Source of the DNA: a virus
IMG/VR virus record: IMGVR_UViG_3300045988_119718
Span: 128,001 to 192,000 of that record
Length of the DNA stretch: 64,000 nt
Reading direction: 5' to 3' (one strand)
Positions 1,736-62,940 of this stretch are shown here, in pieces (positions within the stretch are counted from its first letter, which is position 1; each line of letters opens with the position of its first letter). The notes beneath the pieces are model-generated. The model was not told the DNA's origin. It worked only from the letters and a program-made list of their open reading frames with translations, and did no database searches. Both the position numbers and the translations under genes were made by a program.

Positions 1736-4573
1736 TCATTTTTTATTTTTATACTCTATCTCATAATGATCGAAATAGTAACCAGCTTTAGGCTTAGTTG
1801 AGATATTAGCTATTCTATTTCTGATAATAGAATACTTAGTATCAGATACTTTATCTACATTAGTTACGTCTATCTTAGCTTCATTAGCTTCAGAATTATC
1901 TATAGTAATATATACAACATCTGGAACAACTTTAGTAGCACCTATAGTAATATCCTCTGTAACTTGAATAGAAGATACTATATCATGCTTAACTCCATCT
2001 TTACCATAATAATACAAGCTACCAGCTATATAACCATCTTTAATAGATTTAACCGATACTCTGCAATATTTATTATAACCAATAGTAAATTTATTAATAC
2101 CTTTGCTATTAGTTCTAGGAATACCTTCAGCAGTAACTGTAATCAATTCATCTATGGTAGCTTCAATGGTAATATTATATCTTATATCAGTAATCTTAGT
2201 AGAATATATTATAGTATCTTCAGTTACATCTGCTTCAGTTATATTCAATACCCCTTTATTAAACCCTTCTGCAATATAAGTTATTTCAGCTCTTATATGA
2301 GGATATCTAGAGTTTACTACAAATGAGGCTGTATGCGATTCTTCTACACCATCCTTTAAATTATAGACAGTAATAATCTGATTTTGTACCTGATTAATAA
2401 TTACATTGTATTCTTTATAAGATGCAGGAGTAGCAGTTAAAGTAGTATTGCTAGTAATAACTGCTTTAGTAACACTAGGTGTACCTGGAGTATATTTATA
2501 CTTTCCATCTATAGCTTCAGTTCTTACTGTAATTAATGAATACTCAGGTACTTCAAAAGATTCAGTATAAGTTTTACCATTACATTCTACTATAATTCTC
2601 TGATTTGTGTATTTAGTTATATTTACTTTATAAATAGGGATATTAGAGTAGTCTATATCTAAAGAACGTTCTTTATGGGTTAGTATTAATCCATTATTTT
2701 CTTTTCTAATAAGTTCGTTTAATTCATTCATTCCATCAGTATCGAATTCAAAATAATGAGCATAGAAGTCATCTACATTATTGTTTGATAATATCATATC
2801 ATTCAAACCTTCATATTTAACATCTACGACTCTATTTATATTTAGATATGAATCTATAAACTTACTTACTATCTTTTCAGCGTTAATATTTACAGTACAA
2901 TTTAAATCCTTAGATATAATTCTTCTTTTATCTACAGTATAAAAGTCATATAAACTTTTATAACCTTTTGGAATTTTACTATCAAACTTAGATTCTCCAA
3001 AATTAAATGTGCCTGTTACTTTATTATTAAATACACCTTCATCGTGTATAAAGAAATATGGATATTGTATTTTACCATTATCATCTTTATTAAAATCAGA
3101 GAAGTCTATATTCTCTTTGGTGTACTTTAAATTTAGAGAAGCTAGTTTAATACCTTCTATATAAATATCCATAAGATTATTACCTAAATCTAAAGCTACT
3201 CCTATAGTATTCCCTTGTTCTGGAGATATAGAAGTTTCTACATTCTCTAGATAATGTAAATCGTTCTTATCAGAATTTTGCGTAGAATGTCTTACTAAAT
3301 GAAATAAATAAAATCCACCAGAATTATCCAATCCATTAGGAATAAAACAATTACCTCTATATAGATTTACTCTAATAGATTCAGTCATTATAGTATTAGG
3401 ATTAGTAACTTTTTCTTGACTAGGTTCACCTACTAAAGGAACACTAGTTATACCCATAGCAATAGGTATACCTACTATTCTATCCTTTAATTCCCCTTCT
3501 TTAACTGTATATTCAAAGTATACTTTATCTGTAGTAGGTATAGGATAATTTATATATACATTACCACCTACTTTATAAGAGTTCGTAATACCATACTTAT
3601 TATCTTCACCTGTTTCAAAATCATAATCAGCTTTGATATAAGTATTAGCATTCATATTATATTTATTACTTTTAGTAGTAATAAATTCTGGATCATCTGT
3701 TACTAAAGTTAAATTATCTGTATCTGGTTCTAATTCATTTTCTACAGATAATTCTCCATCCCATTGGATACTATAGGGGTTAAATATATCACCACTTATA
3801 TAAACATAGCATGGATTATCATCTGACCCTAATTCTGCATGTATTTCTTGGTCAGCCATACGTTCATAATATGCTTTATATAATGAATCATATCCTGGTA
3901 CTGGATGGGTTAATCCATTCTTACCAAAATTTACATATCCTGAAATATGTTTTAAATCATCCATAGAAGCTATTCTAAAATTATAATCTTCTTCTATATA
4001 TTTATAATTTATATTACTATATATACAAAAATACATATTAGGTTGTTCAGCTAAGTTAAATGGAGGTGTATATGAATAAAATGGTTTATCATATTCTCCA
4101 TCATAAGGATACTCATTGTTATAGTTTACAAACAGTTTAATTTTATTAGTATGATAATCTACTGCTACTCCTATAGTGTCTCCGATACCAGGTTTTCTTG
4201 TTCCTATAACACTATTACCATCAGCATCTATGCTGCTACCATCTATATACAGTACATTATCTGGTATTTCATTAGACAGTATTTCATATCTAGGGTCAGT
4301 TACATCATAGAATAAAGATGATATAGCATAATCTGCTATTAATACACCCAATGAAGGCTCTCTACTAATTCCTACATATAACGGAATGTGTTGTATTTTA
4401 TTTATAGGGTAATAATCAGTTATATTTATTTCAAACATTGTTTTATTTTTAATAGGGAGATTAGCTATTAAAAAGAATGGTTTATCATAATCAAAGTGTA
4501 ACCCATCACTAGATAAAACATTATCTAATGGAGAGCTATTTAAATCATATGACTTCATTAATATATTATTCAT
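1736..4573 (-). CDS. large virion/tail-associated structural protein with C-terminal Ig-like repeat(s) of the window-wide '…GYxAGSL…' family
   Basis: 945-aa ORF. The C-terminus carries 'KSIKDGYIAGSLYYYG' and 'KPKAGYYFDHYEI', resembling the repeat found in 11338..12444, 13686..14708, 35505..38612 and 38665..45945. Confidence 0.55.
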   Translation of the reverse strand: MNNILMKSYDLNSSPLDNVLSSDGLHFDYDKPFFLIANLPIKNKTMFEINITDYYPINKIQHIPLYVGISREPSLGVLIADYAISSLFYDVTDPRYEILSNEIPDNVLYIDGSSIDADGNSVIGTRKPGIGDTIGVAVDYHTNKIKLFVNYNNEYPYDGEYDKPFYSYTPPFNLAEQPNMYFCIYSNINYKYIEEDYNFRIASMDDLKHISGYVNFGKNGLTHPVPGYDSLYKAYYERMADQEIHAELGSDDNPCYVYISGDIFNPYSIQWDGELSVENELEPDTDNLTLVTDDPEFITTKSNKYNMNANTYIKADYDFETGEDNKYGITNSYKVGGNVYINYPIPTTDKVYFEYTVKEGELKDRIVGIPIAMGITSVPLVGEPSQEKVTNPNTIMTESIRVNLYRGNCFIPNGLDNSGGFYLFHLVRHSTQNSDKNDLHYLENVETSISPEQGNTIGVALDLGNNLMDIYIEGIKLASLNLKYTKENIDFSDFNKDDNGKIQYPYFFIHDEGVFNNKVTGTFNFGESKFDSKIPKGYKSLYDFYTVDKRRIISKDLNCTVNINAEKIVSKFIDSYLNINRVVDVKYEGLNDMILSNNNVDDFYAHYFEFDTDGMNELNELIRKENNGLILTHKERSLDIDYSNIPIYKVNITKYTNQRIIVECNGKTYTESFEVPEYSLITVRTEAIDGKYKYTPGTPSVTKAVITSNTTLTATPASYKEYNVIINQVQNQIITVYNLKDGVEESHTASFVVNSRYPHIRAEITYIAEGFNKGVLNITEADVTEDTIIYSTKITDIRYNITIEATIDELITVTAEGIPRTNSKGINKFTIGYNKYCRVSVKSIKDGYIAGSLYYYGKDGVKHDIVSSIQVTEDITIGATKVVPDVVYITIDNSEANEAKIDVTNVDKVSDTKYSIIRNRIANISTKPKAGYYFDHYEIEYKNKK

Positions 4574-10265: not shown

Positions 10266-10350
10266 AATTATTCCTCCTAAAAAATAAATTATTATAATGT
10301 AAAAAAGATTATTAGTAGCCATATAAACGGCTACTAATATTTTCTACTAA

Positions 10351-11337: not shown

Positions 11338-12444
11338 TTATCTCATATTATTCATATCTAAAATATAGTTAATCACTGGAGCAATAGCAGCAGCTTTAGC
11401 TTCTGCTTTCTCTTCTTCTTCTTTTTTAACGTATTCTTCTGTTTTCCAGTTCTGAGGAATTGTAGTATCTTTATAAACTTCGTTTACAAATTTACCACCA
11501 TTGATAGTAATAGAAGCTGTATCTTTATTGGTTACACCAGAAAGTTCAATATCGAAAGTACCATTCTCAATCGTAATCTTAGCTGATTCAGTCCATTTAG
11601 TACTTGTTCCTGGAAGAGTTTCAGGAGCTGAGGAAGATTTATCATATTCTACAGCACCTACTACTTTACCAGTGAAGTCCTTACCAAAAGTAATTACTGG
11701 AGCAGCATTATAATACTTCTTTAATAATCCATAATAGCAGTCAAATGCTACTCTACGGAATCCATCAGTATTAGGTGCATTGATAATTGTATTACCTTTG
11801 CAAGTTAATCCACCATAGTTATTGGATACTGCATATGCACACTGAGTTCCTTTAGAAATATCTACAGTTACATCTTCTAATACTAATTCAGAATAGTTCT
11901 GAATAAACATTTTGCAATTTGCAAAGTTAGTAGTAAGAGTACCATTCTTAAAAGTAACTTTACAACCTTCCATAAGTCTAAATGCAATAGTCTGATATTT
12001 AACACTAGCACCTACTAATGGAAGTTTAGAAACATTTACGGTATGACCATTTAAATCAAATGTAATGTATCTATCTTGAGTATGGTCATTTTCTACACCA
12101 ACTTGAGTACCACAAGTATCAATATCTTCTAAAAGAGTAATTGTAGTTTCAGTCTTAGGTTTAGCTGCATTTACTGCTTCTTGGAAAGTAGCATATTTTA
12201 CACCATTAGATTCAATTACATATTTTACAGCTTCAGTAGCACTAAATTCAACAGTAGTATCTGATTCTGCTACAGTATAAGTCTCTTTATTTAAAGTACC
12301 AGCTTTATAGCCTTCACTAGCTACAATAGAAGCAATGAGTTCTTTACCAGTTTCTACAGTATCACCATCATGATAAGTTTTAGAATCTAAATCTGAAACT
12401 GTAATAACCTGATTAGCAGATTGAATAATTTTTAAAGTTGCCAT
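11338..12444 (-). CDS. tail-fibre-like protein with N-terminal Ig-like repeat domain
   Basis: The N-terminus 'KIIQSANQVITVSDLDSKTYHDGDTVETGKELIASIVASEGYKAGTLN' matches the repeat consensus of the family. Confidence 0.55.
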   Translation of the reverse strand: MATLKIIQSANQVITVSDLDSKTYHDGDTVETGKELIASIVASEGYKAGTLNKETYTVAESDTTVEFSATEAVKYVIESNGVKYATFQEAVNAAKPKTETTITLLEDIDTCGTQVGVENDHTQDRYITFDLNGHTVNVSKLPLVGASVKYQTIAFRLMEGCKVTFKNGTLTTNFANCKMFIQNYSELVLEDVTVDISKGTQCAYAVSNNYGGLTCKGNTIINAPNTDGFRRVAFDCYYGLLKKYYNAAPVITFGKDFTGKVVGAVEYDKSSSAPETLPGTSTKWTESAKITIENGTFDIELSGVTNKDTASITINGGKFVNEVYKDTTIPQNWKTEEYVKKEEEEKAEAKAAAIAPVINYILDMNNMR

Positions 12445-12464: not shown

Positions 12465-12887
12465 TTAATAATCGGTTAAAGTAGGAGTTTTATTATTTAT
12501 TTCAGGAGAATATTTTATATAAAATCTGTCTATATAAGATTCACCACCACGAACACCAACGTACACCCTAATAGAGTATCGCTTATTCGGAGTTACACCA
12601 ATATATCCTAGAAATGAAATCGTCTCGCCATAATCACCACCACGGTACCATTGTTTGTTATTACTAAATACAGTCATACAAACTGGGTAATCCTCCTCGT
12701 GAGACGAACTAGCACTTGCATATACTTCAATCACATGTATACCATTAGGAATTGTGATAGTTCTAGTAATATCATCATTATAAGTATTTTGTTCATTTAC
12801 CAAATACCCTGTTGGTATGCTTACGGTTGCTGGGCTAGCCGTGAATGTTAGCCCCCCCCCAATTATACCTTTCATTGTTGTAGCCAT
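12465..12887 (-). CDS. small tail-associated protein with an in-frame poly-G tract (9 G = GGG codons); 'ON' member of a phase-variable paralogue pair
   Basis: MATTMKGIIGGGLTF… The homopolymer lies at codons 10-12. The paralogue at 31790..32201 has 10 G and is frameshifted. Confidence 0.55.
   Translation of the reverse strand: MATTMKGIIGGGLTFTASPATVSIPTGYLVNEQNTYNDDITRTITIPNGIHVIEVYASASSSHEEDYPVCMTVFSNNKQWYRGGDYGETISFLGYIGVTPNKRYSIRVYVGVRGGESYIDRFYIKYSPEINNKTPTLTDY
12852..12860 (-). repeat. homopolymeric G9 tract (C9 on the + strand) inside the CDS
   Basis: Seen directly as 'gccccccccc'. Confidence 0.9.
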
Positions 12888-12918: not shown

Positions 12919-13674
12919 TTATGATACTATAGTGTATTGTGATGCAGATAATCCAGCACCATCGAATCCTGCTGGTGGATTCTTAATCTTAACATTTCTA
13001 AGTTTATGAGAATAGTTAAACATTTCATTCCAATGCTTGCATGATTTCATATCAATTACACCTTTAATGGTAGTAAGATTATAGCATTTATAGAACATCA
13101 AGACCATATCAGTTACTTTAGAAGTATCAAAATTAGATATGTTCAATGTGGTAAGATTATCACAGTTAGAGAACATAGAGGCCATACTTTCTACATTAGA
13201 AGTATCGAAGTTGGATAAGTCTAACGATGTAAGATTACGACAATCCCAAAACATACCTTCCATAGTATACACATTAGAAGTATCAAAGCTAGATACATCT
13301 AATGAAATAAGTTTAGAGCAGTTAGAGAACATAAATTCCATATCTATTGCATTAGAAGTATCGAAATTAGATACGTTTATTGAAGTGAGTTTAGGGTGAC
13401 CATAGGCATTTTTAAACATACCTTCCATAGTATATACTTTAGAAGTACTAAAATTAGATAAGTCTAATGAAGTAAGATTATCAGTGCAGTGACCAAACAT
13501 ATAGCTCATACTCATTACAAAACCATCACATGTAACTGTAGCTTGACCTGGGACTGATGTATCTATTTTATCCACACAGGATTTATCATCCCAATTATCA
13601 TTATACCATGGACTAGAACCTTTAGCTATAAAAATTTGATCTTTGAAGGCTGCATAGCTAACAGTAATAGTCAT
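12919..13674 (-). CDS. DUF285 / 'Liste_lipo_26' 26-residue LRR-like repeat protein (surface-binding module)
   Basis: At least 5 tandem repeats of 'LTSLDLSNFDTSNVxSMxxMFxxCxNL'. Confidence 0.65.
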   Translation of the reverse strand: MTITVSYAAFKDQIFIAKGSSPWYNDNWDDKSCVDKIDTSVPGQATVTCDGFVMSMSYMFGHCTDNLTSLDLSNFSTSKVYTMEGMFKNAYGHPKLTSINVSNFDTSNAIDMEFMFSNCSKLISLDVSSFDTSNVYTMEGMFWDCRNLTSLDLSNFDTSNVESMASMFSNCDNLTTLNISNFDTSKVTDMVLMFYKCYNLTTIKGVIDMKSCKHWNEMFNYSHKLRNVKIKNPPAGFDGAGLSASQYTIVS

Positions 13675-13685: not shown

Positions 13686-14708
13686 TTACCCCCCCCCACT
13701 AACGTTCAATGCTCCTGGTTTATACCCACTATCAGCTATAACTTCAGCTTCATATGTAGTTCCCCTTGGACAAGTAAAGGTAGAAGTATGATCGGTTCCT
13801 CCATTCTTTTGAGGTGTATAAACGTGAATAGTCTGGTTAGCAGACTGAACAATAGTTACTGTAGCATTAGCTACTGTTGCAGCTTTAGCACTAATAATCA
13901 TATTGCTATTAAATGTACCACCCTTGGTATTTGGTGTACCTGCTATATAATTATTAGCAGCTATAACTTCTACTTCATAAGTAGTACCTACAGAGCAGGT
14001 GAATGATGAAGTGTGGTCAGTACCACCAGATTTTCTAGGTGTATATACATGGATAGTCTGATTATCACTTTGAACTATAGTTATTTTAGCATAGGATATA
14101 GCAGGGTTAGCATTAATAGACATATCACTATTAATTGTACCATTCTCATTAACATTTAATGACCCTGCTGTATAACCATTTTCAGCTATAACTTCAGCTT
14201 CATATGTAGTTCCCCTTGGACAAGTAAATGTAGAGGTATGATCTGTTCCACCAGACTTCTTAGGAGTATACACATGAATAGTTTGATTAGCAGATTGGGT
14301 AATAGTTACAGTAGCATTAGATTTTGTAGCAGAAGTAGCATTGATAGTTTTATTTTTAGTAAATGTACCACTTCTGCTAATATTTAGTGTTCCTGCCTTA
14401 TAACTATTTTCAGCTATAACTTCAGCTTCATAAGTAGTTCCTGCTAGACAGGTAAAGGTAGAAGTATAATCTATACCACCAATCTTTTTCGGTACATATA
14501 CATGAATAGTTTGATTATCTGACTGATTAATAGTAATTGTAATATTCTTTTTTTCATTATGAGTTTTCTTATAAAGGTCATCTATTAGATCTTGTAATTT
14601 CTTCCAAGTAGGGTCATCTTTAGAGATTCTTTTTAGAAGAATATTTTGAAGAGAAGCATCTAAATCTTCTAATCTTATTCTTCTAATTTCCTTTTTGTTA
14701 TCATTCAT
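13686..14708 (-). CDS. tail-fibre-like protein with 4 tandem Ig-like repeats; ends GGG-stop inside a G9 tract
   Basis: Four repeats of 'QSANQTIHVYTPKKSGGTDHTSTFTCPRGTTYEAEVIAENGYTAGSLN'. Confidence 0.65.
   Translation of the reverse strand: MNDNKKEIRRIRLEDLDASLQNILLKRISKDDPTWKKLQDLIDDLYKKTHNEKKNITITINQSDNQTIHVYVPKKIGGIDYTSTFTCLAGTTYEAEVIAENSYKAGTLNISRSGTFTKNKTINATSATKSNATVTITQSANQTIHVYTPKKSGGTDHTSTFTCPRGTTYEAEVIAENGYTAGSLNVNENGTINSDMSINANPAISYAKITIVQSDNQTIHVYTPRKSGGTDHTSSFTCSVGTTYEVEVIAANNYIAGTPNTKGGTFNSNMIISAKAATVANATVTIVQSANQTIHVYTPQKNGGTDHTSTFTCPRGTTYEAEVIADSGYKPGALNVSGGG
13689..13697 (-). repeat. homopolymeric G9 tract immediately before the stop codon; a +1 G would fuse the gene in frame to the downstream DUF285 gene
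   Basis: 'taccccccccact' on the + strand. Hand translation of the 10-G variant reads GGGVINSDMTITVSYAAF…, in frame with the start of 12919..13674. Confidence 0.85.
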
Positions 14709-14719: not shown

Positions 14720-15742
14720 TTATGAAACTCTATACCAAGCTGCTAATACTGCACCATATGGATTATTTGGTAATGGAGTAGATTTACAATTTGGTGATAA
14801 AGTTGAAGAGATAGTATGTCTATGAGCACCATCAGTAGATGTATTAGGTAAAACATCATCCTTGTCAGATTTTCCGCAGCCTAAATTTTTATTACTACTG
14901 TCATACACCCCCCATTTGCATCTATCAGGCCAATGCTCACCAAATACGGTTCCATGATGATGATCGCCGGTTGTATTAGTTGAACTACCGTTATGACTAT
15001 GCGGAGGCAAATTAGCCTCTGTAAACTTTAATGTGCTACTACCAGTCTTAGTAGTTATATCTGAAGTAGAATTCTTAATATTAACTTCCTCTACACTAGG
15101 ACTACCAATCTTTACATATGCATCACTAATTCTTACCCAATGTGTTCCTGGATATTCTGTACTAGGATTTACATTATAAGCATAGAATATAACTCTGCCT
15201 ACAGCTGGTACACCACTTACATCATCACTAGTCATTACTCTCTTAAATTTGGTATTATTTATATTACCATTACTAGCTCGAATGTATAATTTTCCATCTG
15301 GTTGAGAGATAAATAATTGTGTAGAATAATTTGTGTCTTTATCATAAGGCATATTTATTAATTGACCAGAACTAGCAGGTTGATTAGAAATAGTAGGTCT
15401 ATTGTAATTTGAAATATACATGCCTTGACTATTCCAATCAGCATCACTTGTTCCAGGATTATAGTTATCTTCTAATTTATGGAATGCTTCCCATACTTCA
15501 GTTTTCTTAACAAATTGATCAGTTATATTACCTAAATTATCTGCAATAAAATTTAGCTTTTTTACTAATTCATCATAACTATCTTTAGTTACTGTATTCT
15601 TAAATAGCTCTTGTAATGATGGAGCTAATTCTTCAAAGGTGATCTTATTTTCATTATCAACTTCAGCCATTAAAAAACCTCCAATCTTATTGATTCTAAT
15701 AGGTTTACGCCTATAGGTTACTAGTATGTTAATGTGCTCCAT
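14720..15742 (-). CDS. hypothetical tail-associated protein
   Basis: 340-aa ORF, first gene of the minus-strand block after the divergent intergenic region. Confidence 0.5.
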   Translation of the reverse strand: MEHINILVTYRRKPIRINKIGGFLMAEVDNENKITFEELAPSLQELFKNTVTKDSYDELVKKLNFIADNLGNITDQFVKKTEVWEAFHKLEDNYNPGTSDADWNSQGMYISNYNRPTISNQPASSGQLINMPYDKDTNYSTQLFISQPDGKLYIRASNGNINNTKFKRVMTSDDVSGVPAVGRVIFYAYNVNPSTEYPGTHWVRISDAYVKIGSPSVEEVNIKNSTSDITTKTGSSTLKFTEANLPPHSHNGSSTNTTGDHHHGTVFGEHWPDRCKWGVYDSSNKNLGCGKSDKDDVLPNTSTDGAHRHTISSTLSPNCKSTPLPNNPYGAVLAAWYRVS

Positions 15743-31789: not shown

Positions 31790-32201
31790 TTAATAATCTG
31801 TAACAGTAGGAGGTATTTTATTTATTTCAGAAGACCAAGACATAACGACACTAACACCACCAACTTCTTCACCAAAGTCGGATTCGTATGTAAGTTGTAA
31901 CTCATATGTTTTTTTAGGTGTCACACCAACATAGCTAATACTAGTAGCTGAGTCACCATAACCAGTAACAGATGCCCAGATATTACTAGAACCACCAAGC
32001 TCGCCTTTATACGCACCTGATTGAGATTCAGCATCAATATCACATTTAATAACCCTTACTGATTCTGGTGGAATAAAACTAAATGATGTTATACTATCAG
32101 TGCTTTCAAACCTACTATCACTAGTTATTTGAGCTGTTGCGGGGCTAGCACTAAATACTACTACCCCCCCCCCGTATAGTTCCTTTTAAAGTTGTTGTCA
32201 T
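31790..32201 (-). pseudogene. frameshifted ('OFF') paralogue of 12465..12887; the ATG with strong RBS reads 16 codons to a stop because the poly-G tract has 10 G, while a 9-G version encodes a ~137-aa protein ending …KIPPTVTDY
   Basis: Hand translation with 9 G gives MTTTLKGTIRGGVVVFSASPATAQI…VGVTPKKTYELQLTYE…KIPPTVTDY*, which parallels MATTMKGIIGGGLTFTASPATVSI…IGVTPNKRYSIRVYVG…KTPTLTDY*. Confidence 0.55.
32164..32173 (-). repeat. homopolymeric G10 tract (C10 on the + strand)
   Basis: 'ctaccccccccccgtat'. Confidence 0.9.
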
Positions 32202-35504: not shown

Positions 35505-38500
35505 TTATGTAATATTTTCTGTACCCGATGTTCCGGCATCTTTACCGCCGCCAAGGATATACCATGAAGCAACTACATTAGCAACTTTAACTGTTATGTC
35601 TTCGGTTAAAGTGTATGTAATATCAGATGTTGCATAGAAATACTTTACACTTTTATCTAAATTAGTAATAGTACATGGGATTTTAGTATCATTTATATAC
35701 ATATCGATAGTTTCAATACTGTCATATCCATTATCATCAGTTGGGGTTAATTTAAATCGTACTCTATATAATCTCCCATAACCCCATTTACTAGTTTGAT
35801 ATTCACTCTTATCAATTAATACATATAATGCAGCATCTGTATTGGTTAATTGAATTACATTTATAGTATATAAAATACCATCAGCAGATCCAGCATATAC
35901 TTCATCGTCTGATAATAGTATACCACTAGTTTTATTTAAAGTACCGGCATTATAACCTACATCAGGTTTAATACCTGCTGTCCATTTAGTACCATAATCT
36001 AATTTAACTGAAGAGGTATAAATTTTACCATTAGCCATTACAGCGATAGTTTGATGCTCAGACTGAGTAATAGTTAAAGTGAATTGCTTTATAGTAGCAG
36101 CTGTAGCACTAATACTGTCATTACCTGTTAAAGTACCACTAGTTTTATTTAAAGTACCAGCATTATAGCCTTCTGCTGGTTCTATAGCTACAGTATAAGT
36201 AGTTCCATATGGTAAAGCTACAGTATTGGTATATTTATTACCATTAGCTGTAACAGTAATAGTCTGATGCTCAGATTGAGCTATTGTAAGAGTACATTCA
36301 ATCTTCTTAGCTGCTGATTGAGCATAGATATATGTATCGCTAGTTAAAGTACCACTAGGTAAGTTTACCTCTCCAGCAGTGTATCCTGTTACACCTTCTG
36401 TATATGCTACCCATGTAGAACCATATGGGAAAGATTTAGTACCAGTTGTCCAAGTAATAACATGATTAATATCATCTGGATAAGTACATGTTACTGTAGT
36501 TATAGTATTTTCTGTCTGTTTTATAATTATTCTATAATTGATCTTATTAGCAGCACTAGTAGCATATACCGAATCATCTCCAGTTATAGTACCACTAGCC
36601 TTATTTAAAGTACCAGCGGTATAACCAGTATCTGCTGTAATAGTAGCAGTCCATTTAGTCCCATATGGCAAAGATACACTATTAGTATAAGTTTTACCAT
36701 TAGCATGAACTATGATAGTCTGATGTTCAGATTGAGTAATAGTTAAAGTAAATTGCTTTATAGTAGCAGGACTAGCACTTATAGAATCATTGCCAGTTAT
36801 AGTGTCACTAGTTTTAGACAAAGTACCAGCAGTATAACCAGTATCTGCTGTAATAGTAGCAGTCCATTTAGTCCCATATGGCAAAGATACACTATTAGTA
36901 TAAGTTTTACCATTAGCATGAACTGTGATAGTTTGATGATTACTTTGGTTAATACTAAGAATATAACCATAAGCTGTAGCATTAGTAGCTGAAATAGTAT
37001 GGTTACTATTGATATCGTTTATTTCAAAAGAATTATATAGTTTACCATCAAGTGTTATATATCCGCTTTTATATCCAATAGATGGAGTTATCTTTATATC
37101 GAGAGAATCTCCTTCTGTAGTCTCAAATGTGCTGGTATAATTTTGGTTATTTAATCTTGAATATACGGTAATAGTCTGATTGCTGGTCTGATTAATAGTA
37201 ATAGTATATTTCTTTTTAGCTATATATGTAGCTTCTGTAGCAAATATTGTATAATCCTGACTAATGTTATTAATAGAAGTATAATTCAATTTACCTGCTG
37301 CATAATTAGAATTAGTAGATACAATAGTACAAGTTATACTATCTCCTGACTCTACTTTAAAGCTATTAGTATATATAATACCATTATGGTATACTCTTAT
37401 TATTTGATTTTCTGATTGTTGTATAGTAATAGTATGGGTTCTTAAAGACGGTGGAACTATACCATTTTTATCATGTACATAATCATAGCTATTTTTATCA
37501 TCTATATCTTTAAATCCAGATTTAGTAGTACCAGCAAATGGTAAATAATATAAATCTTCCTTATTATTATGATCAAGATTAACTAATAAATGCGGTTCTG
37601 TAAGATACCAATCGTCATCATCATAGTCTGACAACGGTGTTATTTCCTTATTACCATCTAAATATTGTAAATAAAATACACCATCATTTATCTTATGTGC
37701 TGGTGTTATCTTGATTTCACTATCTTCTTTTAAGATAAAACTTCTTTTTATAGGAATATTAGAATCTATATCCACTGGTGGATATATCAATCTTCCTGGT
37801 ACATAAGTATTATCTTTAGGTGTAATAGTTATTCTGTATTCTGTAAGATAATCTAAACTTACAGCACTAGTATAAGTAGTTCCATTAGCTATTACTCTAA
37901 CGGCTTCATTATCCATTGTAGGTATAGTTATTTTATATTTCTTTTTAGTAGCATTAGTGCAAGTTATATTTAAACTAAAATCATTACTATTAACTAACGT
38001 ATTAGAGGCATTTAGCTTATACATAGTTAATTCAGTATGGTTAGAAGTGCCTTTATTATACCCATATATAGGATTGATTTCTATGCTGTATTCAGTATCA
38101 TAAGTAACATAAAAAGATTTACTTTTATTACCAGATTTCTGTATCGTATACATAGAATAAAAAGTTAAAGTTTGATTAATAGTAGCCGGTAAAGTAATTT
38201 TACACATCTTAGGTTCTGCATCTTTATCTACAGACAAATGTTTATTCTTATACATTATACCACTAGTAGAATTTAATGCTCCTTTGATGGTATAACCAGT
38301 ATCTGCTACTATTTCAGCATCAAATCTATCACCTATCTTACATTTAATGATTCTAGTATTTTCGTATACAGTTTCATTATTTATAGTAACTTTAATATGC
38401 TGATGATTATATTGATCTATTAATATATATAATGCATTGTTTATACTTTCACTAGCATATATAGAAATATCACTTTCTAGTATTCCATGTTCTTTATTTA

Positions 38501-38612
38501 ATCGACCTGATATATAGCCTTCATCTGCTTCTATAGAAGCAGACCATTCTGTCTTATTAGGTCGCTTTTGTGAGGAAGTATATTTTGAATGATCGCTCAT
38601 TTTACCCTCCAT
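35505..38612 (-). CDS. large tail-fibre-like protein with at least 8 tandem Ig-like repeats
   Basis: Repeats such as 'ITQSEHQTIIVHANGKTYTNSVSLPYGTKWTATITADTGYTAGTL'. Two copies are nearly identical at the nucleotide level (~36580-36960). Confidence 0.65.
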   Translation of the reverse strand: MEGKMSDHSKYTSSQKRPNKTEWSASIEADEGYISGRLNKEHGILESDISIYASESINNALYILIDQYNHQHIKVTINNETVYENTRIIKCKIGDRFDAEIVADTGYTIKGALNSTSGIMYKNKHLSVDKDAEPKMCKITLPATINQTLTFYSMYTIQKSGNKSKSFYVTYDTEYSIEINPIYGYNKGTSNHTELTMYKLNASNTLVNSNDFSLNITCTNATKKKYKITIPTMDNEAVRVIANGTTYTSAVSLDYLTEYRITITPKDNTYVPGRLIYPPVDIDSNIPIKRSFILKEDSEIKITPAHKINDGVFYLQYLDGNKEITPLSDYDDDDWYLTEPHLLVNLDHNNKEDLYYLPFAGTTKSGFKDIDDKNSYDYVHDKNGIVPPSLRTHTITIQQSENQIIRVYHNGIIYTNSFKVESGDSITCTIVSTNSNYAAGKLNYTSINNISQDYTIFATEATYIAKKKYTITINQTSNQTITVYSRLNNQNYTSTFETTEGDSLDIKITPSIGYKSGYITLDGKLYNSFEINDINSNHTISATNATAYGYILSINQSNHQTITVHANGKTYTNSVSLPYGTKWTATITADTGYTAGTLSKTSDTITGNDSISASPATIKQFTLTITQSEHQTIIVHANGKTYTNSVSLPYGTKWTATITADTGYTAGTLNKASGTITGDDSVYATSAANKINYRIIIKQTENTITTVTCTYPDDINHVITWTTGTKSFPYGSTWVAYTEGVTGYTAGEVNLPSGTLTSDTYIYAQSAAKKIECTLTIAQSEHQTITVTANGNKYTNTVALPYGTTYTVAIEPAEGYNAGTLNKTSGTLTGNDSISATAATIKQFTLTITQSEHQTIAVMANGKIYTSSVKLDYGTKWTAGIKPDVGYNAGTLNKTSGILLSDDEVYAGSADGILYTINVIQLTNTDAALYVLIDKSEYQTSKWGYGRLYRVRFKLTPTDDNGYDSIETIDMYINDTKIPCTITNLDKSVKYFYATSDITYTLTEDITVKVANVVASWYILGGGKDAGTSGTENIT

Positions 38613-38664
38613 TTAAAAATTATTACACATACCATTTACTGGTATGTGCAATAATACAAATATT

Positions 38665-41600
38665 TTATTTATAAGCAGAAGTTGCTCTAATAACCATATT
38701 ATCAGAAATAATACCAAATGTAGATACACCAATTATAGTGCCAGTCTTATAACCTTCGTTAGCTACTACGGAAATCATATACTCTAAGCCACCTTCGCAT
38801 TCAAAGCTGGATGTATGCGTTGTTCCATTGACAATAACTTGGATAGTCTGATTAGCACTTTGTTCAATCGTAATATTATACTTTCTAACTGTAGCTGCTG
38901 TAGCTGTAAATGTAGTATCAGCTTCAACAGATGGAACCTCTGTGATATTAAGCGTACCACAGTTATAGCTATCATTTGTAGGCTCAACTGTAGCTCTAAG
39001 ATGCGATTGAGCAAATGCTTTGAAGCTATCGAGATGGTCAATATTATCAGCCTCATCTGCAAATACTTCGGTAACAATAATACGCTGATTATCATACTTA
39101 GTAATAGTGATATTGTACTTATGGACTTCAACATTTGTAGCTTCAATAGTAATATCACTGGTTACTGTAGTAGAAGTTATATTCAGCTTACCAGCATCAA
39201 AGAATTTCGCTGTAGATCTAATACTTGCTGTAATAGCAGCACCATACGGAACAGTAAAGTCACTAGTGTATTCAGTACCATTGTAGGCAACAGTAATAAG
39301 CTGATTATTGGTCTGATTGATAGTAATATTAAACATTGCAGTGCTAGCTTCTGTTGTTGTAATTTCAATAGTAGTACCAACACCATCTGTAGATATACTA
39401 TCGTCAATTAAACCACTCATAGGAATATTCAATGTACCATTACTATATCCAGCATCAGCTACTAGTTCTACACTATATTCACTATCATACTGTACATCGG
39501 CTAATGTAATACTTGTATTAGGTTTAACCGTAGTTACTTTACCTTCATTAGTAAAGATTATGGTCTGATGTGCAGGTGCAGTAATAGTAACATTAAATGC
39601 CTTTGGCGTTGCATCACTGCATACAATTTGGGTATCCTCATTAATTATATAAGTATCTTTTAATGGTCTACCTGCTGCATACCCAGTATCTGCTACAACT
39701 CTTACATTTACTTCAGCATGAATAGGAACCTCAAAATCTTCAAAGTAATCTTTAAACTGATAAGTAGCAATTATAGTTTGGTGTTCAGTTTCAGCAAAAT
39801 ATACGGTAAAATATTTCAAAGTAGGTTTAGTTGCAGTAATAGTAATATGGTTATCTGTATCCATAATACTATCACTAAGTATACCACTCTTTTTAATATT
39901 TAATGTACCAGCATTATAATCGCTATGAGTACTTAGATAAACTACATATTTACTATTATAATCCTTAATTACCGTTTTAGTTTGGTTACTACCAACTGTT
40001 ACAGTTTCATCATCAAAGATTACTCTGATAGTAGTATTATCAGGTGCTTTAATATCAACAGTAACTTTCTTAGCTATAGGTTTTACAGCAGAAATCACTA
40101 TAGTATCTTCTTTTACTACAGCTGTAGTTTTAAGAGAAGTTAATGTAGTTCCATTTAATATTAAATTACCTGCAATATAACCATTATCAGCATAAGTTTC
40201 AAATTCTATATAAGAACCTGTCATAGCTTCAAACGATTTATCAATATATACTTTATCACCGTTAATGGCTTTAATATGAGCATGTTCTGGAACTATAACT
40301 TGGATAAATTGTGTTATAGGAGTAGCATCAGTAGCATATATATGCATATCATCATTCTCAGCTCTACCATATCTCATATTTAAATTACCTTCATTATAGT
40401 TTTCATCTGGTATTAAGTATGCAAAGAACTCTTCACCATATTTAAGAGTAAATTCAATATAATCAGTATTAAAATCTGTATCTAAGAATTTACTAAATTC
40501 AGTTACTTCTCTAGTATTCTTATCTTCTAATGTAAACCCAGATAAATCTTTACCTTCAAAGATAATAAATCTAGACATATCTATTGCATTATCTTTATTA
40601 AGTATAAAACTACCATAGGTTTGTAAATTAGGATTTTTCTTATAAGAATAATAATAAGTGATTAAACTTTCTTCACTAGTAGCTTTATCTTTAGCTAATA
40701 ATTCACCATGATAAATATTAGTAGAGTAAGTTTGACCAGTACTTGTTACTATAAAGATAGTCTGATTCTTAGTTACATCTACTCTAACTTTAATAATATT
40801 TGTAGTTGGTAAATTATTCTTCTTAGCATAATCCAAATACTTTTCGTTAATAGAATCTTCTATAGTAGTATCAAAATGAATGTGTTCTTTAAACCCAATA
40901 CTATCCGTGTAGTGTGTAAATACTTGCATTTCACTTCTTATACTATCAAGAGGATTTATACATTCATATTTATTTAATTCTACAAAGTTATCTTTTACAT
41001 CTACATATCTTAAAGTATTAAGCATTGGGTCTTTAGCATTAAATACTATATAATCCCCTTTGCTTCTCAATACTACTTTATATGACTTAAAGAAATTAAT
41101 TATAGTATATAGCATATCTAAGAATGCATTGCCACTTACTCCAGGTAAATGGTCAAATATATTCTGGAATTCTTTTAAATTCAAATACTCTTCCAATATA
41201 TATACTACATCAGAAATTCTATCTACAATAGCTTCATTTCTAGTTTCTTTATCAGTAATGTACTTTAGCCTCATATAATCATTATAAAGTTCAGTATCTT
41301 TATACTTTAAGAACTCAGTTAATGATTTAGCTATTCTAGTAGTACCATTCTCTTTAATATGATAATAATCAAATGTCTGTTTATAGGTCATCAAGGTATC
41401 AAATATCTTTTTCCAAATTTTAAAGATATCATAGTCTTGGGATTTATAAATACTTCTAACTATGAAGTTATAGATATCTCTATTAGTGACTTTACCATTG
41501 ACTAATTTACCAGTACTAAACATATCTGCTATTTCTTTAAGAGAATTAAATACATTATTTTCTCCTGGTTTAATATCAAAATCCCAAATCTTTTTAGTTC

Positions 41601-44600
41601 TATCCTCAGGCAATGGCACAGACATATTTTCATCCAATGGTCTTGGTTGATAGATAAATGTAGTATCAAAATTATTAGCATGCCTACGCTGATCTAATAT
41701 CCATTTCTTTAGTTTAGGTATATCTGCTTTAAAGTTAAATCCTTTAACGTACAATATTTTACCTGTTGTATCGATTATAGTATCATCTACACCAGAGTAT
41801 AAATATGCTAAAGCATTTAAATATGTAAAGAGATATGCTACATTAAATTGCTTATATGGAATAATAGAAGGCACTGATACTTTTACCTTATTTTCCTTAA
41901 ATACATCATCAAAGAAAATATTATAGAAATAAGCAATTTTTAAACTCATTTCTGCTATATCTAAGACATAGTTTATACCAAAATATTTAGTTCTCTCATA
42001 GTTAAATTCTTTAGCTAGTATTTGTTCCTTTACTTTAATATGATTCTTATTTTCATCATCATCAAATCCTACACCATCCCAATACTTATCAGCTAATGTA
42101 GTTTCATCATACGGAAGTAAATTAGTTCTTTTAATAATATTCTTATTAAAGAAAGTATCTTCTATAGGAACACCTACAAACTTCAAATCTATATCTTTCT
42201 TATAATCTTCTGTATAAGTTTTATATACATATCTTTCATTATCAAAATATATAAAATGGAAATTTATATTGCTATACTTTAGTATATCTTTAGAATTTAA
42301 GAATGATAAATGCCCATCAAATATATCATAAGTAGATTCATCTATAATATTATTATTCTCATCAGTAATAAACATTAACCATCCATTGTTATCATAATTA
42401 TCGAATGGGTATGGTATCTCAATCTGAACTTTATTATTTATATCAGTACTCTTTATCGTTTTAACTTCTTCTTTGATAAGATTCGTTCTATCATTGATGT
42501 ATTTATTATTATAAACAAATAAAATATCTATAGAATCGTTGTTAGTAAATATTTCATCAGGTATAGTAATTTCATCATTTGTAAGTTCAAATTTAGTTAC
42601 TACAGATGAATAGTTATTGCTAAAATTATGGAATACTATAGCACTTTGTTTAGTTTCTACATATGATTTAAATGGTATTTTTATTTTATATGTATTAGTA
42701 TTCTCTTTAGCTGCAATAGTTTCTCTTTTAATTTTCAAAGCAGTATTTGTAGTATTATTCATTACATAGGTTATATTGATACAATCTTTTTTACTAGGTA
42801 ATCTATTAAGATTCGTAATAGTCAAAGTTTTAGTAGCAGCATCAATATTATACTCATTAGATCTCAAGTACTTACCAGTTATATCTACAATTACATTATT
42901 ATTCATTTCAAAATAATCATTTGCTATATTTATATCTTTGAATTCACTTTGTTTATCTTTAGCAACTTCTATTCTTTGCTTACTACAAATAATATTAGAA
43001 GTATCTGGGCTGAATACATATGTTATAGTAACTTTCTGACCTTTTTGTAAACCAATAGCTTGGTCTTTAAGAGTGAGAGTATTATTAAATATATCATATA
43101 ATTCAGTGGATAAGTATTCTTTGTTTGAACGAAGTTTAGGATATGCCTTGTATCCTAAAGCAAAGAATTTTTTAAATGGAGGATTTAATTTAAAAGTAAC
43201 TTGGAAATTCTCAGTAGCAGTAATTTCTTCAGTACTTTCATTTATATAGATTCTATTATAAATAGAATTTTCAGAATAAATAAAGAATACTTTTATAACA
43301 GTATTATCATTAATAACTACATTATTATTGAGAGTAACAAGACCTTCATTAATAGTATAATCTGTAGAAGGAATAATAGATATTCTATTATCAGTACTAT
43401 CAGATTTGGTTATTAATACTTCATTTCCTCTTTCAAAGTATTTATCAAAAGGAAAATCTATAGAGAATTCTCTTTTAGCTTCTTTAGTAGATTCAGAATC
43501 ATTATCTATAAGCAAGCTTTCTCTTTGTTCATCTAATTTAACTATATTATCTTTATTATAAATATAGATTATAGTAGCAATAGAATCTTGTGGTATATCT
43601 TCTAATACTATTCTATTCTTAGATAAATCTATAGTATATCTAGTAAGCTCCTTAGTATTAATAAGTATATCACCATCTATACAAATCATTATCTGATTTC
43701 CATCAGTAAGATATGTAGGAGTTGGTAATTTCTTTAATTTTATAATATTAGTATCTAATACATCTGCTTCTTCTGTACTAATAATATATCCATTTTCTGT
43801 ATCAATATAAGGAGTTATATCTTCTTTATTATAGTAGAAATCAAATATTACATCTTTCTGTTTTACACCAGCTTTAGTTATGGTAATTTGTTTCTTATCA
43901 GAAGAGATAGTATAGTCTGTATCTTTAGTAAGAATAGCATTACCATAAACTACCTTCATAATATTATTCTGAAGATAATCGTCAAAAGGCTTATTATTAT
44001 ACTTAGGATAAGGAATATCAAAAGTAGAATTATTTAATCCTTTTCTGGTAAAATTAATTACAACAGAAGTATTATCTTTGCCTAAAGACATTGCATAATC
44101 CCATTCTTTAGGAGAAAGGTTATTAACTATTTCTTTAGATTTACGAGTTTGAATATCAGTTTCTACTAATCTACTATTTTCAATAGAATACCATTTATTA
44201 GTAGCTTCATTATAGAATAAATCTAAATTGATATCATAATATTCTATTTCAATATTATTTTTATCATTAATAGACAACTTATAATAGTTTTCTTTAACTA
44301 AAGAACTAGCATCATCATTATCGCCAGAAGTTACTACTTTATCTTCGGTAATAATATATGCATTATCAGAAGAATCATTGGTAAGTTTATAAATAGTAGT
44401 TGTAGTGGTACCATTCTGTTTTTTATCCTCTATAGGTACATTTATAGCTGTATCCAGATTGCTAGCTATATCGGATATAGTAACTTTAGATATACTACCA
44501 TCACTACCATTTAAATAAGCTATACCATCTTTAACTGTTAGAGTATACGTTCTAGTAAACTCTCTCTTTACTCTATCATGGAAAACAGTATCATTTAATT

Positions 44601-45945
44601 TACTAGATTTAGATTCTAGTTCATTAAAAATAATATCTCCCCATTTATCTACTTTTCTATCTCTAAGTATAAAATATCTAAATACTTCAATATTTGGAGC
44701 ACCAAATAGATCGATTAGATTAATCATACCTTGAGAGCAAGATTTAAATCTAATTAATTGATTTATATTCTTGCACATTCTATACTGGTATCTTAAAGGA
44801 ATGGTATTATAGTAAGGCATACCATACATTTCAAAGATATATTGGATACATCTTTTATCTAATAAATCAGTCTTAATAATATCTTGATGTACTTCTGATA
44901 AGATATCAGTTATAGTCATAATCATTATCATCATTCCTATAAAATTATCATAATAATCAGAAGTTTCTTTAAAAATATCATTGTAGAAAGTACTCATTAC
45001 AAATAATCTATTTTCTTCATACTTAGATTTAAATTTAGAAGTTACTACATAATCATCATCTACTGTAGGAGCATATAATAATTGGAAATTATATGCTTTT
45101 CTAGCTTTATATATTTTCTTAGCTCTGTAAATAGTGTTATCTTCAGATTCATCATAGTCTACAAAAGCATCAGCAATATAATCAAGATAATCAGCATTAG
45201 GATAATCGGCTCTAATTCTATCCATAATGCCTTTACTCTCTAAGTATTCTATCTGAGTTGGTGATAACTCATGAACATAAGTTACATTATCATTATTAAT
45301 AAATTCTTCAATAGTAGAAGCAGCTACTGGAATATATTCATAATCCATTATAGGAATACCATAATCCCCAATTTTTGGTAATCCTGCTAACATACGATAG
45401 TAGTTATTAAGCTCATTATAATTCGCTATATAAGATTGCTTGCCTTTTTCAGTTAATTCATCTCTAAGAGCATAAATACCTACAATCCTACCATCATCAA
45501 GTTTTTTAACTTTATAATTTCTAAAAGTTATTCCTCCACCAATAGTTTCTACTTTAAAATATTCACCAAATTTATACTTTACTTTATCAAAGTATCCACC
45601 TATTTCTTCTCCAGTTTCATCGTCTAAAGCTGGTTTAAGTTCTATCATATCATGTAAATCAGGTATATAAGTTTTATCTTCCATGCATTTAGAAAGATGA
45701 TAAGAGCCTGTTATACCAGCACTTTTAAGTAAACTTTCATCGTAATCAAATAACTCAAATACAGCAGTATTCTCAAAACAAGAAATAAGTATATCACCGG
45801 CTAATATACTTTCTTTAGTTTCATTTTTCATAGCTTCTTCTTCATTTTTTATTACCGAACCAAATGAAAGAAGTTTAGTATAATATAAGAGATAATCAAC
45901 GAATGGGTTATTAGAATAGGTTTTGCTTATTTCTATGCTACTCAA
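38665..45945 (-). CDS. giant (2426-aa) virion structural or adhesin protein; C-terminal ~700 aa consist of the same Ig-like repeats
   Basis: The C-terminus has 'YNITIEQSANQTIQVIVNGTTHTSSFECEGGLEYMISVVANEGYKTGTI' and 'ITKYDNQRIIVTEV…'. The N-terminal ~1700 aa were not recognised. Confidence 0.65.
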   Translation of the reverse strand: MSSIEISKTYSNNPFVDYLLYYTKLLSFGSVIKNEEEAMKNETKESILAGDILISCFENTAVFELFDYDESLLKSAGITGSYHLSKCMEDKTYIPDLHDMIELKPALDDETGEEIGGYFDKVKYKFGEYFKVETIGGGITFRNYKVKKLDDGRIVGIYALRDELTEKGKQSYIANYNELNNYYRMLAGLPKIGDYGIPIMDYEYIPVAASTIEEFINNDNVTYVHELSPTQIEYLESKGIMDRIRADYPNADYLDYIADAFVDYDESEDNTIYRAKKIYKARKAYNFQLLYAPTVDDDYVVTSKFKSKYEENRLFVMSTFYNDIFKETSDYYDNFIGMMIMIMTITDILSEVHQDIIKTDLLDKRCIQYIFEMYGMPYYNTIPLRYQYRMCKNINQLIRFKSCSQGMINLIDLFGAPNIEVFRYFILRDRKVDKWGDIIFNELESKSSKLNDTVFHDRVKREFTRTYTLTVKDGIAYLNGSDGSISKVTISDIASNLDTAINVPIEDKKQNGTTTTTIYKLTNDSSDNAYIITEDKVVTSGDNDDASSLVKENYYKLSINDKNNIEIEYYDINLDLFYNEATNKWYSIENSRLVETDIQTRKSKEIVNNLSPKEWDYAMSLGKDNTSVVINFTRKGLNNSTFDIPYPKYNNKPFDDYLQNNIMKVVYGNAILTKDTDYTISSDKKQITITKAGVKQKDVIFDFYYNKEDITPYIDTENGYIISTEEADVLDTNIIKLKKLPTPTYLTDGNQIMICIDGDILINTKELTRYTIDLSKNRIVLEDIPQDSIATIIYIYNKDNIVKLDEQRESLLIDNDSESTKEAKREFSIDFPFDKYFERGNEVLITKSDSTDNRISIIPSTDYTINEGLVTLNNNVVINDNTVIKVFFIYSENSIYNRIYINESTEEITATENFQVTFKLNPPFKKFFALGYKAYPKLRSNKEYLSTELYDIFNNTLTLKDQAIGLQKGQKVTITYVFSPDTSNIICSKQRIEVAKDKQSEFKDINIANDYFEMNNNVIVDITGKYLRSNEYNIDAATKTLTITNLNRLPSKKDCINITYVMNNTTNTALKIKRETIAAKENTNTYKIKIPFKSYVETKQSAIVFHNFSNNYSSVVTKFELTNDEITIPDEIFTNNDSIDILFVYNNKYINDRTNLIKEEVKTIKSTDINNKVQIEIPYPFDNYDNNGWLMFITDENNNIIDESTYDIFDGHLSFLNSKDILKYSNINFHFIYFDNERYVYKTYTEDYKKDIDLKFVGVPIEDTFFNKNIIKRTNLLPYDETTLADKYWDGVGFDDDENKNHIKVKEQILAKEFNYERTKYFGINYVLDIAEMSLKIAYFYNIFFDDVFKENKVKVSVPSIIPYKQFNVAYLFTYLNALAYLYSGVDDTIIDTTGKILYVKGFNFKADIPKLKKWILDQRRHANNFDTTFIYQPRPLDENMSVPLPEDRTKKIWDFDIKPGENNVFNSLKEIADMFSTGKLVNGKVTNRDIYNFIVRSIYKSQDYDIFKIWKKIFDTLMTYKQTFDYYHIKENGTTRIAKSLTEFLKYKDTELYNDYMRLKYITDKETRNEAIVDRISDVVYILEEYLNLKEFQNIFDHLPGVSGNAFLDMLYTIINFFKSYKVVLRSKGDYIVFNAKDPMLNTLRYVDVKDNFVELNKYECINPLDSIRSEMQVFTHYTDSIGFKEHIHFDTTIEDSINEKYLDYAKKNNLPTTNIIKVRVDVTKNQTIFIVTSTGQTYSTNIYHGELLAKDKATSEESLITYYYSYKKNPNLQTYGSFILNKDNAIDMSRFIIFEGKDLSGFTLEDKNTREVTEFSKFLDTDFNTDYIEFTLKYGEEFFAYLIPDENYNEGNLNMRYGRAENDDMHIYATDATPITQFIQVIVPEHAHIKAINGDKVYIDKSFEAMTGSYIEFETYADNGYIAGNLILNGTTLTSLKTTAVVKEDTIVISAVKPIAKKVTVDIKAPDNTTIRVIFDDETVTVGSNQTKTVIKDYNSKYVVYLSTHSDYNAGTLNIKKSGILSDSIMDTDNHITITATKPTLKYFTVYFAETEHQTIIATYQFKDYFEDFEVPIHAEVNVRVVADTGYAAGRPLKDTYIINEDTQIVCSDATPKAFNVTITAPAHQTIIFTNEGKVTTVKPNTSITLADVQYDSEYSVELVADAGYSNGTLNIPMSGLIDDSISTDGVGTTIEITTTEASTAMFNITINQTNNQLITVAYNGTEYTSDFTVPYGAAITASIRSTAKFFDAGKLNITSTTVTSDITIEATNVEVHKYNITITKYDNQRIIVTEVFADEADNIDHLDSFKAFAQSHLRATVEPTNDSYNCGTLNITEVPSVEADTTFTATAATVRKYNITIEQSANQTIQVIVNGTTHTSSFECEGGLEYMISVVANEGYKTGTIIGVSTFGIISDNMVIRATSAYK

Positions 45946-62235: not shown

Positions 62236-62290
62236 AGGGAAAGGGGGATGGGGGTTCTAGGGGGTAGGGGGGGGAAGGGAACCTTTTTCT
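62236..62290 (+). other. G-rich island with G-quadruplex potential (GGG/GGGGG/GGGGG/GGGGG/GGGGGGGG/GGG)
   Basis: 'ggagggaaagggggatgggggttctagggggtaggggggggaagggaacc' flanked by 'tccctc…' pyrimidine tracts. Extreme for a ~28% GC genome. Confidence 0.6.
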
Positions 62291-62697: not shown

Positions 62698-62940
62698 TTT
62701 TTAGTTAAAAATTAAAAATCAACTAACATACCCTTTTTTCGCTATTTTCGTATTCCTATTAGTTTTAATGGAAATATGACTTTCTCATACCTTGCTAAAA
62801 ATTTAGTTAAAATTGAAAAACCAATTAACATACACTTTTTTAGCCATATTCGTATTCCCATTGGTTCTAATGGAAATACGACTTTTCAATTTTTTCTAAA
62901 AATTTAGTTAAAATTGAAATACCAATTAACATGTGGTCAC
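62698..62940. repeat. ~100-nt direct tandem repeat, 2.4 copies, ~80% identity (candidate iterons)
   Basis: The unit 'aatttagttaaaattgaaaaaccaattaacata…cgtattcccattggttctaatggaaatacgact…' is repeated. It is flanked by the TTTATAA palindromes 'gtttataattataaac' at 62656 and 'tttataattagtttataa' at 62960. Confidence 0.7.

Follow-up and report, generated by a model that had tools for sequence, protein, structure and literature searches.

Small beta domains strung along virion proteins, such as T4 Hoc and similar immunoglobulin (Ig)-like domains of phages, are thought to give weak adherence. In crAssphage and related gut phages, tandem repeats have been described of BACON, a bacterial-type domain of the surface or carbohydrate-binding kind, which these uncultivated phages carry in arrays in proteins associated with the tail; the arrays evolve by duplication and domain exchange (de Jonge et al., 2019; PMC6949934). 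Among bacterial surface proteins, long tandem arrays are formed by the InlB B-repeat superfamily. The InlB B repeat, the prototype of the fold to which the family Flg_new_2 (PF18998) is related, is a beta-grasp that lacks the helix (PMC8900821). Contingency loci have been described in phages as well (PMC12633550), and hypermutable poly-G tracts have been reported from Campylobacter phages, in genes for receptor binding (Sørensen et al., 2021, Cell Rep 35:109214, cited in PMC10877375). Here we describe a repeat module that recurs in five genes, A to E, of a stretch of viral DNA of 64,000 nucleotides (nt), positions 128,001 to 192,000 of the IMG/VR record IMGVR_UViG_3300045988_119718, hereafter the window. 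We think it reasonably likely that these genes encode tandem-module surface proteins of a jumbo phage, built from a diverged branch of Flg_new_2 and reshaped by intragenic recombination.

The locus is like the crAssphage arrays in the tandem use of a bacterial-type domain by an uncultivated phage, but the domain family is another, the source is a jumbo phage with split RNA polymerase genes, and putative conversion tracts and unit loss can be followed across samples. With PF18998 and the InlB B repeat the phage module has in common a length of ca. 70–80 residues, a (predicted) all-beta composition and the arrangement in long tandem arrays in surface proteins. It differs in an extra Q-S-x-H/N-Q-T-I motif and in its carriers, as it has been seen in uncultivated large phages whereas PF18998 belongs to bacterial cell-surface proteins. 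Unlike the Ig domains of the T4 Hoc type, it has no Ig match at Pfam thresholds and no significant structural match, its homology being to the InlB B-repeat superfamily.

A repeat module in five genes

A hidden Markov model (HMM) built from seven units of gene D was searched against all six-frame open reading frames (ORFs) of at least 60 amino acids (aa) in the window. Matches were confined to exactly the five ORFs in which the initial annotation had seen the repeat (full-sequence E-values of 1e-245 for D, 2e-58 for C, 1e-50 for E, 5e-16 for A and 5e-12 for B). By this model there are 11 units in D, 8 in E, 4 in C, 3 in A and 1 in B, where at least eight had been counted in each of D and E and four in C. 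The units are 71–81 aa long (213–243 nt) rather than 65–70 aa or ca. 190 nt as first described, and have as hallmarks the motifs Q-[ST]-x-[NH]-Q-x-I and G-Y-x-A-G-x-L-N. That the repeats dominate their ORFs is true of D and C only, because in E they fill only aa 1823–2426, ca. 25% of the protein.

Gene D (35505..38600, minus strand, as are all the genes A to E) is almost all repeats. It had been drawn from 38612, an ATG that gives 1035 aa, but the start is probably the ATG at 38600 (1031 aa, beginning MSDHS), which has GGAGG before it and on which orthologues and public gene calls agree. From the N-terminus the protein is made up of a half unit, three degenerate units, an 84-aa insert, seven well-conserved units and a variable tip. 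The seven strong units (aa 393–914) have four degenerate ones N-terminal to them; the N-terminal region (37689..38600) holds the half unit, in which the first two strands are missing, and three degenerate units. The strong units, r1 to r7 (35871..37436), are placed head to tail with no linkers and score 86–117 bits each with the HMM (r1, 37209–37436; r2, 36966–37208; r3, 36753–36965; r4, 36537–36752; r5, 36297–36536; r6, 36084–36296; r7, 35871–36083). The C-terminal tip (35508..35870, aa 915–1035) opens, as read by eye, with a further repeat-like stretch resembling a degenerate unit. The half unit with which D begins (38440–38600) is the C-terminal half of a unit, lies 52 nt past the complete last unit of E and is conserved even among orthologues at 28% identity; it might be left over from an ancestral fused gene or serve for docking. 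Between E and D there is a terminator-like hairpin followed by a T run (38619..38655, minus strand), with the ribosome-binding site of D, GGAGG, after it.

Gene E (38665..45945) encodes 2426 aa from a TTG start, with a conserved core of ca. 1800 aa followed by a C-terminal array of eight diverged units (38668..40479; 604 aa). Comparison of the protein with itself by BLAST gave no further repeat outside aa ~1836–2426, and a profile search of the core against PDB sequences gave no informative match. Cores of this type occur with 0, 5, 6, 7, 8, 9 or 10 units in different phages; those without units have ca. 1,360–1,390 aa, and elsewhere a DUF285 tip replaces the units. The middle of E (ca. 42250–44090, aa ca. 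620–1230) has a second, weaker periodicity of ca. 90–100 aa, with periods that end in motifs such as IxFDFYY, FNFIYS, VxYVYGP, TFIYN, LYIYNNKY and LTFxFIY; the BLAST self-comparison does not detect it, but the consensus of 28 homologues shows it too.

Homology of the module

A profile search of 1.84 billion cluster representatives recovered 776 proteins at an E-value ≤1e-3. The best 150 of these included three long proteins that score 160–220 bits for PF18998 (Flg_new_2, “divergent InlB B-repeat”), one of them with a type-9 secretion sorting domain, and the repeat profile is collinear with bona fide Flg_new_2 units over profile positions 1–65. When 64 non-redundant units of our family (alignment A1) were compared by hhalign with 20 Flg_new_2 units (alignment A5), the result was a probability of 98.1% and an E-value of 6.6e-14 over 68 of 71 columns, although the Flg_new_2 units came from proteins retrieved by the repeat profile itself; 12 of the 20 individually match PF18998. 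The motif G-Y-x-A-G-x-L-N stands at the position of G-Y-x-F-G-A-W-W-D-G in Flg_new_2, which has ca. six extra residues after it. On this profile evidence the module is a diverged branch of the Flg_new_2/InlB B-repeat superfamily that lies below Pfam's own threshold, a branch found so far in phages and metagenomes only.

The divergence is considerable. None of the 64 units reaches the PF18998 gathering threshold (23.6 bits) and two match at an E-value ≤1 (best 0.061), the terminal units of two relatives, P0029 and P0033, coming to 22.7 and 16 bits. Neither whole proteins nor single units hit any repeat family at the Pfam gathering score. The canonical aromatic motif of Flg_new_2, G-Y-x-F-x-G-W, was not found in the unit consensus, in which the segment that follows is shorter. 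The kinship with Flg_new that had been suggested thus stands at the level of the superfamily, by the hhalign comparison with PF18998 units, and fails at that of the Pfam families themselves: the PF18998 gathering score is not attained, and PF09479 is neither among the 25 most frequent families listed for the 64 units (E-value ≤1) nor among the whole-protein matches (E-value ≤0.1).

A single unit modelled by AlphaFold2 from the 64-unit alignment is all-beta (predicted local distance difference test, pLDDT, 98), with strands predicted at residues 2–6, 11–17, 20–22, 33–40, 53–55 and 60–64, an order compatible with a helix-less beta-grasp. Foldseek found no neighbour of this model in the PDB at an E-value ≤1e-3. 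The best were Gram-positive pilins and CBM20 (E-value ≥0.013, template-modelling (TM) score 0.45–0.64), and InlB was not among the 50 matches listed. In BFVD, the library of predicted viral structures, the good matches (TM 0.82–0.94) were confined to this repeat itself, as it occurs in a few phages of gut viromes, and the unit profile had no match among PDB sequences. Ig-type families gave sub-threshold Pfam matches only (PF21653 in 8 of the 64 units, Big_12 in 1 of 64). The label “Ig-like” first given to the module is probably wrong, because no Ig family matched, no PDB neighbour is significant and the related prototype is a helix-less beta-grasp. Two other candidates were set aside: PF21653 pulA_all-beta (30 bits) as a low-information partial match, and a link to PF22479 (Pam3 gp18) from weak matches, with no PDB sequence match and no place in the Foldseek list.

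Probable recombination between units

Near-identical DNA units within D had been pointed out as a substrate for unequal recombination. Such near identity is confined to one pair: r3 and r4 agree at 183 of 212 positions (86%), a figure composed of a perfect 93-nt run (36832..36924 in r3, 36619..36711 in r4) and flanks at ca. 75%, whereas the remaining pairs of D units are 60–74% identical and no exact run of at least 18 nt is common to any units of the E array. The C array has exact inter-unit runs of 47 and 27 nt, and Tandem Repeats Finder reported only this array and the leucine-rich repeat (LRR) of a DUF285 ORF, leaving the D and E arrays unreported.

Traces of exchange between units emerge when the five best-conserved units are aligned across 24 orthologues of D. 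In the window the core of r4 is of the r3 type, while the other 23 orthologues carrying that part have a distinct r4-type sequence, so that the perfect run at 36619..36711 looks like a conversion tract copied from r3. In P0004, r3-type sequence occupies the second half of r6. In P0009, which stands for 18 member sequences, sequence of the r3/r4 type extends from mid-r6 through r7, at the DNA level a perfect duplication of 337 nt with a spacing of 669 nt, equal to three units. Two orthologues also lack a unit. Compared with the near-identical P0013, from which it has two amino-acid differences outside the deletion, P0020 is missing exactly 213 nt, with the breakpoints inside a 27-nt run common to r3 and r4 in that strain; P0023, from another lineage, sample and assembler, independently lacks a unit, and at a different junction. 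All these variants are in frame and in unit register. Identical DNA stretches in neighbouring units would allow homologous recombination within the gene, which would copy sequence from unit to unit (gene conversion), and unequal crossing-over would occasionally remove one unit. With mosaic tracts between units, and two one-unit deletions with junctions in the shared core, among natural variants, the prediction of unequal recombination is supported. As to the expansion or contraction of fibre length that was predicted with it, contraction by one unit is observed and expansion was not seen among close orthologues.

Among the related phages, P0026 and P0027 (from the loci L015 and L016) have a much shorter D-like gene (612–683 aa) ending in units of the ORF C type. 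In both loci the next gene called after it is a homologue of the window ORF 32342–33742, and the gene for the PAPS-reductase-like protein seems to be missing together with its neighbours, marking a variable region of the genome.

Likely role of the repeat proteins

Two layouts are common among 147 representatives of the family. In one, an N-terminal segment of 55–85 aa is followed by 2–14 units (median 4) and a C-terminal module of 100–200 aa or more; in the other, a core of 1,400–1,800 aa precedes the units, as in E. The partner domains, examined in a sample of 40, include the DUF285/BspA-type LRR (9/40), Laminin_G_3 (a concanavalin-like lectin) and the YadA head and stalk. In a distant relative of ca. 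259 kb an E-like gene, a DUF285 gene and a D-like gene with a DUF285 tip are still clustered. D itself has the conserved proximal part and variable distal tip expected of a fibre: among 22 full-length orthologues the N-terminal units are the most conserved (mean pairwise difference 0.08–0.15), variability is highest over the last ~120 residues (0.30, vs 0.08–0.20 elsewhere), and in more distant relatives (P0024–P0028 and P0034) the C-terminal modules are swapped. Gene C (13686..14708) is directly downstream of a tail-fibre-like gene (14720..15742, minus strand; Pfam Gp10_C, PHROG tail protein/tail fibre) and has a ca. 38-aa N-terminal motif in common with it (E-value 0.002, single comparison). 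B, too, is in this neighbourhood, which also contains a gene with a weak Amidase_2 match in public gene calls.

Because of the partner domains, the gradient from conserved N-terminus to variable tip and the position of C beside a Gp10_C gene with a common N-terminal motif, A to E are most likely virion fibre or adhesin stalks, a putative assignment. Their arrays would serve as spacers or stalks and might also bind ligands weakly; the stalk would hold the variable distal module away from the conserved proximal part. The virion location, the stalk role and the ligand binding of A to E, as well as the reality of recombination between the assemblies, are what we infer from these comparisons.

Several observations weigh against a fibre that recombination reshapes. 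D and E adjoin a PAPS-reductase-like gene and a Band_7 gene and no recognisable tail genes, and neither had a match in the PHROG scan. For aa 1–480 of the E core, modelled with AlphaFold2 (pLDDT 76), Foldseek found no PDB neighbour, and the retrieval of the Flg_new_2 units by the repeat profile, mentioned above, bears on the homology. Eleven units are kept in 22 of the 24 D orthologues, so that the length of the array is mostly constrained. All the variants come from short-read metagenome assemblies, in which exact repeats and deletions can be artefacts, and the coverage of the P0020 contig is only 2.3x.

Unlikely but credible is the alternative that A to E are virion decoration proteins like T4 Hoc, coating the capsid or tail and adhering, weakly and multivalently, to mucus or glycans. 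A beads-on-a-string build is typical of such proteins, and D, nearly all repeats down to a ~120-aa tip that itself begins repeat-like, has neither a trimerisation or fibre-tip signature nor tail genes as neighbours. However, members of the family often end in tips of adhesin or receptor type (DUF285 LRR, lectin, YadA), the paralogue C is placed beside the tail-fibre gene whose N-terminal motif it has, and receptor-binding proteins usually show this combination of a conserved N-terminus and a variable tip.

We find it quite improbable that the arrays are static and that the conversion tracts and one-unit deletions are short-read assembly artefacts. The junction of the thinly covered P0020 does fall in a repeat of 27 nt, less than the k-mers commonly used for assembly, and the ending of two contigs (L008 and L009) at a poly-G tract indicates that assemblers struggle in that region. 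But the events differ between lineages, samples and assemblers (SPAdes-, MEGAHIT- and scaffold-style contig names), they respect frame and unit register throughout, P0009 represents 18 sequences, and the D of the window, with its conversion tract, recurs on a scaffold of 252,628 bp that is listed with another sample accession.

That A to E are non-virion proteins, acting in or on the infected cell as scaffolds, surface-modifying or exclusion factors with the repeat as spacer, is highly improbable: D and E do stand among non-structural-looking genes (PAPS-reductase-like, Band_7) and the core of E has no recognisable structural homologue, but no hydrophobic signal or anchor is visible by eye in the N-termini of D and E, the partner domains and neighbours of the paralogues point to fibres, and in the distant ~259-kb relative the genes like E and D have kept their linkage to DUF285 genes.

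Poly-G tracts and possibly exchangeable tips

Gene C consists of a 55-aa N-terminal segment and four units, and stops inside unit 4 right after nine G (tract 1, 13689..13697, minus strand), which encode the Gly-Gly-Gly loop of that unit just before the stop codon. Next comes an ORF of 251 aa (12919..13674, minus strand) for a DUF285/BspA-type LRR, which in the relatives P0049, P0089, P0121 and P0034 is joined to a repeat stalk as its tip module. With 10 G in tract 1, unit 4 is completed (…NVSGGGVINSDMTITVSYA…) and gene C and the DUF285 ORF share one frame, which encodes a fusion of 596 aa. Located inside the last repeat loop of the stalk, the tract thus decides whether stalk and DUF285 tip form one polypeptide. 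Four loci have this tract at 9 G; in L006 it is of 10 G, and the protein there, P0062, reads through into a different tip, not DUF285; these lengths, like those of the other tracts, are taken from short-read assemblies.

The two remaining tracts belong to small tip-like ORFs. Tract 2 (12852..12860, minus strand; 9 G, in frame) forms codons 10–12 of an ORF of 140 aa (12465..12887, minus strand; MATTMKGIIGGG...) homologous to the C-terminal tip of P0062. Its length in L007 is 9 G, as in the window, but 10 G is found on L008 and L009, contigs from two other samples, both of which end at the tract. Tract 3 (32164..32173, minus strand; 10 G) lies near the start of a paralogue of this ORF (31790..32201, minus strand), whose frame is broken in the window; with 9 G in the tract the paralogue would encode 136 aa. 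The two small tip ORFs are 34% identical, both end in ...TP(T/P)(L/V)TDY, and each has its own ribosome-binding site and its poly-G tract near the start.

All three tracts are at a homologous “GGG” position. By our own estimate, ca. 0.003 such tracts are to be expected by chance per 64 kb at a GC content of ~29%, against the three of G9–G10 on the coding strand here. As in contingency loci, we are dealing with long coding homopolymers beyond chance, the length of which differs between populations and changes the frame. They resemble the Campylobacter phage tracts (cited in PMC10877375) in being runs of G9–G10 within genes, here putatively for host recognition, of a phage rich in AT, with differences in length between assemblies that change the frame. 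They differ in their sites: tract 1 is in the last repeat loop of a stalk, and tracts 2 and 3 are at codons 10–12 of small tip-like genes. The hypervariable adhesin arsenal with poly-G switches that the initial annotation proposed is plausible from the partner domains, the variable tip of D, the Gp10_C neighbour and the three tracts, while the role in the virion and in binding is again one that we infer.

One may go further and see a programmable joint, in which polymerase slippage in the G tracts, or recombination between them, would pick the distal module attached to a stalk or expressed with it (the DUF285 LRR, one of the two ~140-aa tips, or none), which together with conversion and unit loss would give a combinatorial repertoire of host-recognition fibres, heritable and yet reversible. 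We regard this as decidedly doubtful. More speculative still is the idea that proteins whose N-terminus is formed by the final strands of a unit (the small tips, and D) dock onto truncated stalks by strand complementation. It is weakened by the short D-like variants P0026 and P0027, which end in the same loop as gene C and are followed by a terminator-like inverted repeat with no partner ORF or poly-G tract, so that a truncated last unit appears to be a normal C-terminus.

The phage and other features of the window

The source is, to judge from its gene content and database matches, an uncultivated, low-GC jumbo phage of ca. 252 kb. This conclusion draws on the split RNA polymerase genes, the Gp10_C fibre gene, matches to metagenomic contigs and a null result against GenBank phage records. 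PHROGs for a split RNA polymerase beta subunit are matched by the ORFs 23394–24773 and 26756–28012; split multisubunit beta-type genes of this kind are typical of phiKZ-like jumbo phages, and an HNH endonuclease gene (28016–29068) lies directly beside one of the two fragments. A stretch of 9,023 bp around ORF C is identical to part of a 252,690-bp metagenomic contig, the 252,628-bp scaffold mentioned above encodes the exact D protein, and the contigs with relatives of D and E measure 230–290 kb. When D and the fused C protein were searched by tblastn against 50,697 GenBank phage records, the DUF285 part alone was matched and the repeat in none; 25 kb of the window found no match by megablast. 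The GC content of the window varies between 24 and 39% across 2-kb windows.

Of the paralogues with few units, A (1736..4573) has an N-terminal part of ca. 650 aa, with a weak SPRY-like match, and three units (~1943–2632), and B (11338..12444) has one unit at aa 2–76 (12217–12441) followed by a C-terminal domain of ca. 290 aa. Towards its C-terminus the product of the Gp10_C-like gene (14720–15742) is rich in His (HSHNG...GDHHHG), in a way reminiscent of the HxH motifs that bind metal in fibre tips of the T4 type. A cluster of the radical-SAM type (4652–10322) lies downstream of the fibre/adhesin gene group; in it 4652–5812, 6994–8046 and 8892–10322 match radical SAM PHROGs and 5805–6992 is unmatched; its neighbour, 10351–10962, is the gene with the weak Amidase_2 match. 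Towards the other end of the window the plus strand has a G-rich stretch at 62267–62274 (GGG..GGGGG..GGGGGGGG..GGG), and near it, at 62700–62932, there is a 102-nt tandem repeat (2.3 copies, 85% matches).

Significance

Tandem-domain fibres, intragenic recombination and poly-G switching are each already known elsewhere, and no principle in what we describe is new. The analysis names and bounds a domain left unannotated by current Pfam and PHROG models, present in ca. 776 of 1.84 billion cluster representatives, and links it to the InlB B-repeat/Flg_new_2 superfamily of bacterial surface proteins. The module, unsurprising in principle, is useful for annotation and for finding host-recognition genes, and flags candidates for such genes in uncultivated phages of ca. 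250 kb that have no cultured relatives. The 24 orthologues of D, with their putative conversion tracts and unit losses, and the polymorphic poly-G tracts provide a natural data set on how large phages may diversify their surfaces.

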